A stretch of 64,000 nucleotides of DNA, from the IMG/VR virus record IMGVR_UViG_3300021961_008157; one strand, written 5' to 3'. The translations under genes and the position numbers were made by a program. Below are positions 4,907-55,081 of the stretch, in pieces. A model generated the notes under the pieces. That model searched no databases, was not told the origin of the DNA, and saw only the letters and a list, made by a program, of their open reading frames with translations. Position 1 is the stretch's first letter. Every line of letters starts with the position of its first letter. This DNA is from a virus.

Positions 4907-5024
4907 TTAAGCAACTGGTCCAAGATATCAAAATTAAAACGATGATCGTAATAAACTATCGTAACTTTACTTGTATTTGGGTTTGCTTGTAGAAGAACTC
5001 TACTTACGGTCGGCGTTCTGTTAT

Positions 5025-5054
5025 ATTATAACAGTAAAGACATCACTATGTCAA
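5025..5054 (-). promoter_or_regulatory. sigma70-type promoter for the tctA operon
   Basis: TTGACA-18 bp-TATAAT on the minus strand. Confidence 0.65.
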
Positions 5055-5114
5055 GCGTCAATTGATATTCCGACGTCCAATGGCTGGGCGTTGCATCTTT
5101 ATTTATCTTTTGAT

Positions 5115-5188
5115 TGGAGCGGGGTAAGAGAATCGAACTCTCAGCATGAGCTTGGAAGGCTCAGGTATTACCACTATACGAACCCCGC
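5115..5188 (-). tRNA. tRNA-Gly(TCC)
   Basis: Cloverleaf, anticodon arm tgagc-CT TCC AA-gctca, encoded CCA. Confidence 0.95.
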
Positions 5189-7119: not shown

Positions 7120-7211
7120 TGGTACCAGCGGAGGGGATCGAACCCTCTCAAGAACGCTAATCTGGCGCTAAAAGTCTTATAAGGACTCTCTGACTACCAA
7201 GTCTCGCTGGC
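7120..7211 (-). tRNA. tRNA-Ile(TAT), atypical, with long variable arm
   Basis: Acceptor gccagcg/cgctggt+A+CCA; anticodon arm gagtc-CT TAT AA-gactt; variable stem agcgc/gcgtt; T-arm gaggg-TTCGATC-ccctc. Confidence 0.8.
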
Positions 7212-7220
7212 ATTAAATTT

Positions 7221-7501
7221 TGGTGCGACTGGCCAGAATCGAACTGGCATGACTTGCGTCGAGGGATTTTCTTACCACTATAGTTTTCACTACCCTTTCG
7301 GTTTGTGGTCTGGACTATACCTTAACCATTGCTTTCGCTTTAGGTCCCCGCCGTCTAGTCTCTACACGTTCCCTTTTGGGTTTCGCTCGGTATTAGCATT
7401 TTACAGCCTTCACCGAATTTGACGGGTTCTACTCCTACCGTTTCCAGTAGGGCACTCAAATTTTCTAAGTCCCTTGTGTCTACCGATTTCACCACAGTCG
7501 C
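7221..7501 (-). tRNA. tRNA-Leu(TAA) interrupted by a group I intron
   Basis: Exons 7467-7501 and 7221-7270 join to give aggga-CT T|AA AA-tccct; long variable arm; CCA. Confidence 0.92.
7271..7466 (-). mobile_element. Compact (196 nt) group I intron, no ORF
   Basis: P (AAATTCGGTGAA), Q (ATACCGAGC), R (GTAGAGACT) and S (AAGGTATAGTCC) elements; follows U34 and ends in G. Confidence 0.9.
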
Positions 7502-13734: not shown

Positions 13735-13739
13735 ATCTG

Positions 13740-14110
13740 GTTGTTTATTTTACAAGGTAAGTCCTACCCCGGGTCTGGCTCAAAGTGCCAGTACAGCGGC
13801 CTTGCTACGGCTGTAGAACTTGATGTTCTTGCCGCTAACAGTTACGCTACCATTTGTAGATGCGTTTGCATTTACTAGTTTTATGCGATTAACGTTCGTC
13901 ATCTAACGTGCTGTCCAGTTCAATACTCTTTACTCAATCGATCGCTATGTCAGGCCCATCATAAACACATTGGATTTTGGATTCGAACCTTGTCCTAGTG
14001 TTGTCCATCTGCACTTCCCACAGTACTGAACCCTATGTGTTTATGGTGGACCTGCCCGGTACCGCCCCGGGGTCTTGAATCCTTTTCTATCACCTTCATA
14101 CAGCAATAAC
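13740..14110 (-). ncRNA. ssrA: Circularly permuted (two-piece) tmRNA
   Basis: The 3' acceptor half (...cccgg-GGCGGTA-ccggg-caggtcc-A-CCA, ending 14044) precedes the 5' half GGGCCTG (13957). G3:U70 pair present. Tag frame 13869-13780 after TAAAT: ANASTNGSVTVSGKNIKFYSRSKAAVLAL*. Outer boundaries approximate. Confidence 0.88.
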
Positions 14111-14128
14111 TTACATTATATATTTATT
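14085..14128. repeat. 44-bp direct repeat, copy 1 (tmRNA 5' end and -10 region)
   Basis: ttctatcaccttcatacagcaataacttacattatatatttatt, identical to 15142-15185. Confidence 0.95.
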
Positions 14129-14144
14129 TTAGCCAATGATAAGT

Positions 14145-15017
14145 TTATAGGTTATGCTTTTTCCATTCTGCACGAACCCTGGCTTTAGACTTTGCTGATA
14201 ATGGAACATAGTCCAAATCTTTTGCCATTGAGTCGCCATTTGTATAGCACCATTCAAAGAACTTGATTGCTTCTTTCGCAGAGCTATCTGGATAAACAAT
14301 GATGTAAGTTTCAGCAGTTAATTTGTAGTTGCCTTCTTTGAAATTATCAAAATTTGCTTCAACACCGTCTAACTTAGCAACAGTTAAACTATTGGATTTG
14401 GTGTAAGCATATTCAACGTATCCAATGGAACCAGGCAATCGCATAACCATTGCAGCAACACCGGCGTTGCCTTTACCTTGTGCAATGTTGTTACCTTCCC
14501 ATTTAACTGTCTTTCCTGGTTTAGTTGTAAAACCGTGTTTAGCCAGATAGTTTGTAAAAACAGAAGTAGTGCCAGAACTATCAGCACGGGATATCCGAGT
14601 AATTGCCAAGTCAGGCAACTTAGAATCAATTTGCTTCCAGTTTGTAACACGACCATCAAAAATATCAGCTATCTGTTTGCTTGTTAAATTTAACTCATTG
14701 GTCTTGACACCTGGAATGTTTACTACTGCAACAACACCACCCATGACCATTGGGAACTGGATCTGACCATTCTCATCCAACTCTGCTTGTTTAACTGCTT
14801 CGTCACTTGCACCAAACTGTACAATCTTTCCATTAATCTGTTTGATTCCGCCGCCAGAACCAATCGCCTGATAGTTGACTTGCACACCTGTTGCTTTGTT
14901 ATACTCTGCTGCCCATTTGCTATAAATCGGCGCAGGAAAGGTAGCTCCTGCACCAGTGACTGTAATTGCTTGAGCATTAATTGCAAATGCAGCAAGAAGC
15001 ATTAATAATTTTTTCAT
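14145..15017 (-). CDS. pstS: Phosphate ABC transporter substrate-binding protein
   Basis: GAGATFPAPIY, GSGGG, FGASD and RADSSGTT motifs. Confidence 0.95.
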   Translation of the reverse strand: MKKLLMLLAAFAINAQAITVTGAGATFPAPIYSKWAAEYNKATGVQVNYQAIGSGGGIKQINGKIVQFGASDEAVKQAELDENGQIQFPMVMGGVVAVVNIPGVKTNELNLTSKQIADIFDGRVTNWKQIDSKLPDLAITRISRADSSGTTSVFTNYLAKHGFTTKPGKTVKWEGNNIAQGKGNAGVAAMVMRLPGSIGYVEYAYTKSNSLTVAKLDGVEANFDNFKEGNYKLTAETYIIVYPDSSAKEAIKFFEWCYTNGDSMAKDLDYVPLSAKSKARVRAEWKKHNL

Positions 15018-19723: not shown

Positions 19724-19778
19724 TCCTTGATAGCATCACTGCTATTTCGTCCTTGTTACGTTGGACTCATCAGAAGGA
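19724..19778 (-). ncRNA. Type I hammerhead ribozyme
   Basis: tcctt-CTGATGA-gtcc[aacgtaacaa]ggac-GAAA-tagca[gtga]tgcta-TC-aagga: complete core with stems I-III. Confidence 0.92.
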
Positions 19779-19788
19779 TAACGTTGTT

Positions 19789-19863
19789 TGGTGCGCCCGG
19801 GGAATTCCGACATCCCGACCCAGCGATTATGAGTCGCTTGCTCTGCCCCTGAGCTACAGGCGC
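19789..19863 (-). tRNA. tRNA with CAT anticodon (Met or lysidine-type Ile2)
   Basis: agcga-CT CAT AA-tcgct; atypical T-loop GTCGGAA; CCA. Confidence 0.8.
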
Positions 19864-19989: not shown

Positions 19990-20218
19990 TGCTCTGCGTC
20001 CCCCGGCGGTAATTATACTGCATCAACGTAGCCCACAGACAGGACCCACCGCATCACACACAGCCTCCACCCGCTTCCCGACAGGGACCGTTCTCGCATT
20101 GCCAGCGCCGGTTAGGTTGGACCGCATCTTTCGACGTAAGACTATTATGTCTTAGAACCACCCGTGGCTATCACACCACTTCAATCCTCCGGGTCAGAGT
20201 AGCCGTTGATTAAACGGC
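19990..20218 (-). ncRNA. Unidentified highly structured ncRNA
   Basis: GC-rich non-coding block with nested long-range stems (ctctg/cagag, cccgg/ccggg, ggtggtt/aattacc) and several hairpins; own promoter. Confidence 0.65.
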
Positions 20219-20241
20219 ACGGTTTTTACTGTCTAAACGTT

Positions 20242-20270
20242 ATTATATAACAAATTTGATTTAATGTCAA
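20242..20270 (-). promoter_or_regulatory. Consensus sigma70 promoter for the ncRNA/tRNA transcript
   Basis: TTGACA-17 bp-TATAAT. Confidence 0.85.
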
Positions 20271-54094: not shown

Positions 54095-55081
54095 CTATGC
54101 ATTGTGCCCATATACTTGATAGTATCTTAGAATCATTGAATCTGCAAAAAATTTGTGTGATAGTAGTCCGGGATGGCTGCCGTCAGAACCCAGGTCAATA
54201 TAATGATCATCGTGGTTCTGCCCAAAAATTCCATGTAATGGAATAAAATTCGGCATTCTTTCCATGTCTGACTCAATGCCTTTGATTAGTGTTGCTAAAA
54301 TAAATTTAACTCCGATTTTATTACAAAAATTTATAACTTGGTAAATCGACGTTATAGATTTGTACTGTGTATGGTCAGACAAAAAGTATTCTTTAGTTAT
54401 TAACTTTGCAGCCAGACTGCTTGCGTGACTTTTGTTTATATTTGTAAATTTCACCGACATCGACATATCGTCCCAAAATGAAAATCTTTTTGGATTTGTA
54501 ATCCCCCAAAATAAAATATCATTTTTTTCTAAGTCGGACCGCAAGATCTGATCGGCTGCCCACTCAATTGAACTCCCTGAGCGTGTCAGGAAAGAAACTG
54601 GAAGATTTAATTTTTCAGAAATTATATTTCCATAACGTTCGTGTTGTTGAACACCCATTCCGTCACTTATACTACATCCAGCAATCCAAATTTGCGGTTT
54701 TTCTGATCTTTTTGTGTCAGCAAGTTCCAGTGAATTCTTGGCTATCCCCTTTGCTTCATATCCATGAACAATTTTTGTTGGGTCCTTTGAGAATACTGTT
54801 AGATACGATTCGATCCATTCTTTTTGCTTGCTAGATTGAAAGAGAGATTGATCAGACCATTTTTCAGGAGGAGCATATATTATTCTGTTTGCCTGTCTTA
54901 AAACAGATGCAAATTGTACCAAATTGTCAAGGTCGCCAATACTGATATAGTAAGTGCCCGGTGATAGTTCTTTGTAATTTTTGTTGGTAATTAATACTGC
55001 ATCAAGATCATGTTTTTGTGCTGTTTCTGCCAAATACGGAGTTATATCGCCAACAAAAATTGTAATTTCTTCGGTGGCCAT
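54095..55081 (-). CDS. SGNH-like hypothetical protein
   Basis: AGCSISDG, GSS and DGSHPG motifs. Confidence 0.55.
   Translation of the reverse strand: MATEEITIFVGDITPYLAETAQKHDLDAVLITNKNYKELSPGTYYISIGDLDNLVQFASVLRQANRIIYAPPEKWSDQSLFQSSKQKEWIESYLTVFSKDPTKIVHGYEAKGIAKNSLELADTKRSEKPQIWIAGCSISDGMGVQQHERYGNIISEKLNLPVSFLTRSGSSIEWAADQILRSDLEKNDILFWGITNPKRFSFWDDMSMSVKFTNINKSHASSLAAKLITKEYFLSDHTQYKSITSIYQVINFCNKIGVKFILATLIKGIESDMERMPNFIPLHGIFGQNHDDHYIDLGSDGSHPGLLSHKFFADSMILRYYQVYGHNA

Follow-up and report, generated by a model that had tools for sequence, protein, structure and literature searches.

A type I hammerhead ribozyme between two phage tRNA genes is probably the 5′ processing module of a pseudoknotted RNA

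The stretch of DNA analyzed here (64 kb; "the window") stems from a huge uncultured phage which encodes a family-B DNA polymerase (PolB), auxiliary genes, many tRNAs, and a permuted tmRNA. The tmRNA is of the two-piece type and is located on the minus strand (13736–14158; Rfam, 96.6 bits). A group I intron match of 53.2 bits is found on the same strand (7120–7476) beside a 92-nt tRNA-Ile (UAU). The locus of interest belongs to an RNA operon on the minus strand that is headed by a sigma-70-type promoter, TTGACA-17-TATAAT (20270–20242), with 12 of 12 matches in the hexamers. Transcription is expected to run from this promoter through the hammerhead described below. Two tRNA genes of the operon flank the hammerhead, both on the minus strand. 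The upstream one is a CAU tRNA with an encoded CCA (19863–19789), which is recognized by the Rfam tRNA model (46 bits at 19792–19863) and is not called by ARAGORN. Its T-loop, GUCGGAA, is atypical and its T-stem is weak; it may be a specialized or impaired tRNA. The downstream one is a tRNA-Asn (GUU; 19604–19529), called by ARAGORN and found with 68.7 bits by Rfam.

By sequence reading, the CCA end of the CAU tRNA is at 19791–19789. It is followed by a 10-nt spacer (19788–19779), which contains the motif ACGUU (19784–19780), and by a type I hammerhead ribozyme (19779–19723, minus strand), as indicated by the Rfam model RF00163, by a family model of our own (R1), and by the local fold. Stem I consists of 5 bp between UCCUU (19778–19774) and AAGGA (19728–19724). 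The core sequence CUGAUGA (19773–19767) leads into stem II, in which the 4 bp GUCC/GGAC (19766–19763/19752–19749) enclose a 10-nt loop. The core sequence GAA (19748–19746) is followed by stem III with 6 bp and a GUGA loop (19745–19730), and C17 is at 19729. All conserved core positions are present (C3-U4-G5-A6-N7-G8-A9, G12-A13-A14, and H17), and the A15.1–U16.1 pair is formed by A19745 and U19730. The topology is that of type I, as stems II and III are closed by loops, stem I is open, and G10.1–C11.1 closes stem II. All three stems, with 5, 4, and 6 bp for I, II, and III, are reproduced by the local fold. When 259 nt of context are folded, stem I is swapped for another pairing in the minimum-energy structure.

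A preliminary description of this DNA had proposed an intact type I core at these coordinates, located between the CAU tRNA and tRNA-Asn and 10 nt past the CCA, with cleavage after AUC. Sequence reading and the local fold of the minus strand agree with this, and the cut between 19729 and 19728 agrees with C17 at 19729. The idea that the ribozyme splits a polycistronic transcript is supported as well, since the predicted cleavage between the two tRNAs would sever the RNA. The stretch is very probably a real self-cleaving hammerhead.

Several searches addressed whether the hammerhead is more than a chance match. A search of the window for the core motif CTGATGAG..CGAAA..TH gave a single locus, with 0.12 expected. 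Among the Infernal hammerhead models, which had been recommended as a check for this locus, RF00163 (type I) matches a 201-nt stretch with 26.6 bits (E 9.6e-5; model positions 1–45), below the gathering score of 34 bits, and a scan of the whole 64-kb window at Rfam gathering thresholds gives no hammerhead. Relatives with many compensatory changes in their stems also score low with RF00163 (28.7 and 30.5 bits), so that the Rfam cut-off is evidently set too high for these phages. The model R1, a covariance model of the hammerhead and the adjacent helix P1, was trained on 18 phage relatives and not on the window. Over both strands of the 64 kb, it gives a single match at 19779–19690 with 64 bits and an E value of 4.5e-14 (calibration rough), and the alignment spans model positions 1–87. 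In the four helices of the 18 relatives, 95.2% of the cells are paired, and 16 of 24 pairs are changed on both sides. None of 500 shuffles reached such a high value, and slid controls were 31–42% paired. Judged by its sequence, the window ribozyme is an ordinary member of the known hammerhead class.

The preliminary description had also noted that loop II could contact the 5′ flank. As claimed, AACGU in loop II (19762–19758) is Watson–Crick complementary to ACGUU in the spacer (19784–19780), and the probability of such a 5-bp complement by chance is about 0.3–3.5%. In the study of Perreault et al. (2011, PMC3088659), about 40% of the hammerheads had a pseudoknot, and the geometry in the window (a 5-bp stem I, one unpaired base, and then the helix) resembles these pseudoknots. 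Among 126 distinct phage type I hammerheads sampled, the loop II of the window is the longest (10 nt), and in none of the other 125 was a 5-bp match between loop II and the 5′ flank found. All relatives of the unit have a loop II of 3–5 nt and a stem I of 6 bp. The window copy thus departs from every relative in three features: the 5-bp stem I with A:C at the sixth position, the 10-nt loop II, and the pair 15.2–16.2, which is U–A in the window versus C–G in the relatives. Because of these three departures, the window copy could be slower or decaying. The contact between loop II and the flank may have arisen by chance or as a compensation specific to this lineage.

A predicted pseudoknotted RNA starts directly at the cut and extends to the vicinity of tRNA-Asn (19728–19615, minus strand). 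It was delineated by an alignment of the window with 10 relatives (A1), by compensatory changes, by the fold z-score, and by R1 over P1. The window carries AAGGACACGC at the cut. Helix P1 (19721–19691) closes a 13-nt loop, ACCUUUCGGUGUA (19712–19700), and is followed by the hairpin P2 (19689–19677) and by a long hairpin (about 19673–19623). The pseudoknot pairs UUCGGU (19708–19703) with ACCGAA (19620–19615), and all six pairs are Watson–Crick. A 10-nt spacer (19614–19605) separates its 3′ strand from tRNA-Asn.

The 124 nt between the cut and tRNA-Asn form a more stable fold than shuffled sequences (z = −3.06). RNAalifold recovers the pseudoknot unaided, with CG, GC, UA, and GU at two columns. 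Over 11 sequences, for which the 3′ ends were chosen by complementarity, 95.5% of the pseudoknot cells are paired and three pairs covary; in P1, five pairs covary. We estimate that a complementary distal partner would be found by chance in about 11% of sequences, and it is present in almost all units described below. The first bases, AAGGACA, which run on from the 3′ strand of stem I, are invariant in the subfamily of the window (alignments A1 and A3). When thresholds are relaxed, the knotted RNA of the window and that of five relatives cannot be assigned to any Rfam family. Membership in the COG2908 RNA family (RF02939) was considered and rejected as the score is 16.1 bits (E 0.084) versus a gathering score of 58.7. 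The two have a short hairpin motif, AACCUUUCGGUGUA, in common, and the rest is unmatched.

To survey other phages, IMG/VR was scanned with a hammerhead-core pattern. Some phage hammerheads were found to adjoin tRNAs, and several of them are then followed by a common motif, ACCUUNNGGUGUA. Together with three further scans, this gave 34 distinct units, the window counted. In all 34, the 3′ strand of stem I directly continues into the knotted RNA. Common to the units is a P1 that closes a 13-nt loop, ACCUNNNGGUGUA, in which NNNGGU pairs with A-ACCNNN located 80–150 nt downstream (4 nt in the minimal form). The 5′ start of the knotted RNA is AAGGACA in the subfamily of the window, AGACAG in a sister subfamily, and UUACAC in the minimal form. 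A local ACCU/AGGU pairing that had been considered for the AGACAG subfamily is merely part of the variable P1 stem and was dismissed. These data point to a phage RNA that seems widespread and is missing from Rfam 15. An 18-base knot pattern was also run against genome contigs and gave at least 114 matches. Those inspected were chance matches in GC-rich coding sequence, and Rfam found nothing in seven of them.

The neighbors of the units differ on both sides. Upstream, a tRNA 3′ end lies 0–10 nt away in the window and in L038, L121, L122, L129, L130, and L149, with a distance of 0 nt in L149 by sequence reading. A promoter-like site precedes the units of L025, L077, and L106, and other units follow the end of an ORF. 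Downstream, a tRNA begins within 10 nt in the window, L038, L121, L124, L132, and L153–155; an ORF with a ribosome-binding site 9–35 nt away follows in L007, L122, L133, L144, L145, L148, and others. Overall, such an ORF comes after about one-third of the units and a tRNA after another third. Within 300 nt, 14 of the 34 units have a tRNA and 20 have none, and tRNA-Asn follows the unit in three cases only (window, L121, and L132), which are too few to claim a special link with this tRNA. Given these varying neighbors, the ribozyme travels with the downstream RNA and not with a tRNA. Hence, as far as the comparison of these loci goes, the hammerhead belongs to the conserved pseudoknotted RNA that lies downstream of it in unrelated phages.

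We also looked at the relatives of the phage itself. A search with PolB gave about 600 relatives, and the set with 81–91% identity includes two complete genomes (347 and 364 kb) that carry terminal repeats and in which PolB is 83–85% identical to that of the window. Relatives with a PolB identity of 90–91% are on contigs that are too short to reach the hammerhead region. The ten longest PolB-relative records (the two complete genomes and eight long fragments) contain no copy of the unit and no type I hammerhead at all. As a positive control, R1 finds one unit per record in five of five unit-bearing records, one of which had been used to build R1. Since two complete relatives are without the unit, it is dispensable for this phage group. 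The tRNA islands are rearranged in the PolB relatives, where either another tRNA or a promoter plus a small ORF is found ahead of tRNA-Asn. Thus, the unit is best described as a sporadic cassette and no fixed part of the tRNA operon of this lineage, as judged from the genomes compared.

Some further observations concern these genomes. In one complete relative (G001; L358:1092–1503), a promoter-like site and an ORF of about 50 codons precede tRNA-Asn in the place of the unit. The order of tRNAs varies widely among the PolB relatives. The ORF-free operon head of the window (19990–20270, minus strand) is 74–75% identical in G001 (106521–106635), G002 (334–439), and G004 (54718–54942). These three do not have the hammerhead unit yet keep the operon-head stretch, which suggests that the operon-head RNA is conserved independently. 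No close relative of the window copy was found by an exact 29-mer scan of IMG/VR, and two neighboring proteins used as queries gave no related loci. A scan of one metagenome for hammerheads like that of the window gave three matches, all of which are unrelated and were discarded. A "distant" BLAST search against cultured phages gave tRNA segments only among the matches listed.

We consider it probable that the stretch is a functional type I hammerhead which serves as the 5′ processing module of a composite unit, where it is joined to a pseudoknotted RNA about 115 nt long. Transcription of the operon would begin at the consensus promoter at 20270, and the folded hammerhead would cleave itself between C19729 and A19728. 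The upstream product would comprise the leader RNA and the CAU tRNA with a 60-nt trailer, which is the ribozyme, and would end with a 2′,3′-cyclic phosphate; this trailer would be left for host nucleases. The downstream product would start with a 5′-OH at AAGGACA, the first bases of the knotted RNA. The 13-nt loop of P1 would pair with ACCGAA about 90 nt further on. Finally, RNase P, as expected from general tRNA biology, would cut at tRNA-Asn (19604) and free the knotted RNA as a species of about 124 nt. Hammerheads with type I topology cut at their own 3′ side, which fits the making of a downstream 5′ end. As the cut would yield exactly the conserved first base of the knotted RNA, the latter is likely the client of the ribozyme. 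The anatomy, the place in the family, and the compensatory changes among relatives are shown by the sequences; from these, we infer self-cleavage, the order of the events, and the purpose of the cut, namely, to set the 5′ end of the knotted RNA and to insulate it. Our best guess for the knotted RNA is a stable, nuclease-resistant 5′ structure or a small RNA. Its position at the heads of mRNAs suggests a structured 5′-OH insulator or stabilizer, and within tRNA arrays, a free small RNA would be the outcome.

A different role would be tRNA maturation, in which the hammerhead separates and matures the tRNAs of the array as a counterpart of theta ribozymes, an analogy already drawn in the preliminary description. 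Theta ribozymes are minimal HDV-like ribozymes of gut phages and are likewise small self-cleaving ribozymes beside phage tRNA genes (PMC10879173). The location of the window hammerhead, 10 nt past a tRNA CCA and about 125 nt ahead of tRNA-Asn, is in favor of this role, and so are the units located 0–9 nt after a tRNA 3′ end in L129, L130, L038, L121, L122, and L149. Moreover, in L074 and L118, the predicted cut of a type I hammerhead falls exactly at tRNA-Tyr position 1. However, theta ribozymes cleave no more than 5 nt to either side of a tRNA 3′ end (Kienbeck et al. 2024, PMC10879173), whereas the predicted cut in the window is 60 nt past the CCA, which ends at 19789, with 124 nt remaining to the start of the next tRNA. 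Hence, neither mature tRNA end would be made, and the analogy fails at this point. Theta ribozymes also belong to another class and cut at their own 5′ end. For the window hammerhead, the cut is predicted on its own 3′ side, at a distance of 60 nt from the tRNA, so that it would serve the downstream RNA. The 20 units without a nearby tRNA argue against tRNA maturation too, as does the sequence right after the cut, which is conserved as part of another RNA. A maturation role therefore appears rather improbable.

The client might also be the downstream mRNA or tRNA precursor. The hammerhead would then strip off variable upstream RNA, and the knot together with the 5′-OH would shield the transcript from 5′-end-dependent decay, so that the unit would be an insulator and 5′ stabilizer, a natural analogue of RiboJ. 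A 5′-OH end is a poor entry substrate for RNase E and RNase J. The arrangement of many units, with an ORF and its ribosome-binding site 9–35 nt on in about one-third and a tRNA in another third, as well as the units directly after a promoter in L025, L077, and L106, would suit such a device. In the window, however, RNase P would detach the knot from tRNA-Asn, and hence there would be no need for a lasting protection of the tRNA. We regard this explanation as unlikely. A decaying or inactive relic, or a mere chance match, would be in line with the score below the Rfam gathering threshold, the three departures from the family consensus, and the close relatives without the unit. Yet all core bases, the three stems, P1, and the six pseudoknot pairs are intact, R1 gives an E value of 4.5e-14, and the covarying relatives also reach only 28.7–30.5 bits with RF00163. 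A relic or chance match is thus very improbable.

For the preferred composite unit of hammerhead and knotted RNA, a cleave-then-fold device, i.e., a natural self-installing 5′ cap, can also be conceived, which we consider doubtful. Before the cut, the invariant AAGG would be held in stem I by UCCUU. Afterwards, the freed 5′-OH end would move onto the CCUU of the P1 loop, and RNAalifold indeed pairs the 5′ AAGG with this CCUU. Both RNA ends would be locked in one loop, cleavage would become irreversible, and the knot would be nuclease-resistant. The model is weakened because the pairing is made of invariant bases only, because the sister subfamily with AGACAG in stem I has no 5′ AGG, and because the conserved GG after P2 is an alternative partner. 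If it were true, the knot would be a natural 5′ cap that phages put before tRNA arrays and mRNAs.

Compared with known systems, the window hammerhead resembles bacterial and phage type I hammerheads (RF00163, clan CL00010; Perreault et al. 2011, PMC3088659) in its core, open stem I, G10.1–C11.1, A15.1–U16.1, and C17, and in its phage location. It differs from RF00163 members in its score below the Rfam cut-off and in its fusion to a pseudoknotted RNA that starts at the cut. A role in cutting long phage transcripts has been suggested for phage hammerheads (PMC3088659). In that paper and in the part of the full-text literature that was searched, we found no natural hammerhead in tRNA arrays or fused to a pseudoknotted RNA, and hammerheads and tRNA arrays co-occurred there only in engineering papers. 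In hammerhead–tRNA fusions used in vitro and in the RiboJ insulator, an upstream hammerhead gives a defined 5′-OH end. The composite unit is similar to these constructs in that the hammerhead is upstream and the downstream 5′-OH end would be independent of the preceding RNA. The constructs are engineered, however, and their partner is a simple hairpin or a tRNA, whereas here it is a natural, conserved pseudoknotted RNA. The composite of hammerhead and knotted RNA appears to be undescribed.

Phage hammerheads are known to be common, and their purpose has been largely open since 2011. The composite unit would provide a concrete client, a fused pseudoknotted RNA whose first base is at the cleavage site. 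In unrelated phages, the two move together, into tRNA arrays as well as to the 5′ ends of mRNAs. A vague processing of polycistronic RNA thereby turns into the testable proposal that the ribozyme sets the 5′-OH end of a specific structured RNA. The case of the window further indicates that the ribozymes beside phage tRNAs are of more than one functional kind.

Three further groups of loci are of note. In L007 (11100–13960), L052 (10850–11170), and L125 (11411–11822), a compact 23-nt pseudoknot (CCUUGCGGUGUA, AGG, UA, and ACCGC) recurs about 10 nt ahead of many ORF starts within the same phage, and a hammerhead precedes some of the copies only. From its sequence pattern, it looks like a minimal form of the knotted RNA. 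In L153 (about 1049–1268), L154 (about 4907–5142), and L155 (about 988–1204), each encoded on the minus strand, the units belong to the same subfamily, and their hammerheads have a very long insert in stem III. Their cores read CGUAA for CGAAA, with position 13 changed, and the knotted RNA is kept; these hammerheads are possibly inactive or have variant cores. In L074 (8399–8525, plus strand), L118 (2634–2766, minus strand), and probably L078 (6483–6600, plus strand), hammerhead position 17 directly precedes position 1 of tRNA-Tyr, and one strand serves both as the 3′ strand of stem I and as the 5′ strand of the acceptor stem. With this arrangement, the tRNA 5′ end would be generated by the ribozyme with no need for RNase P.
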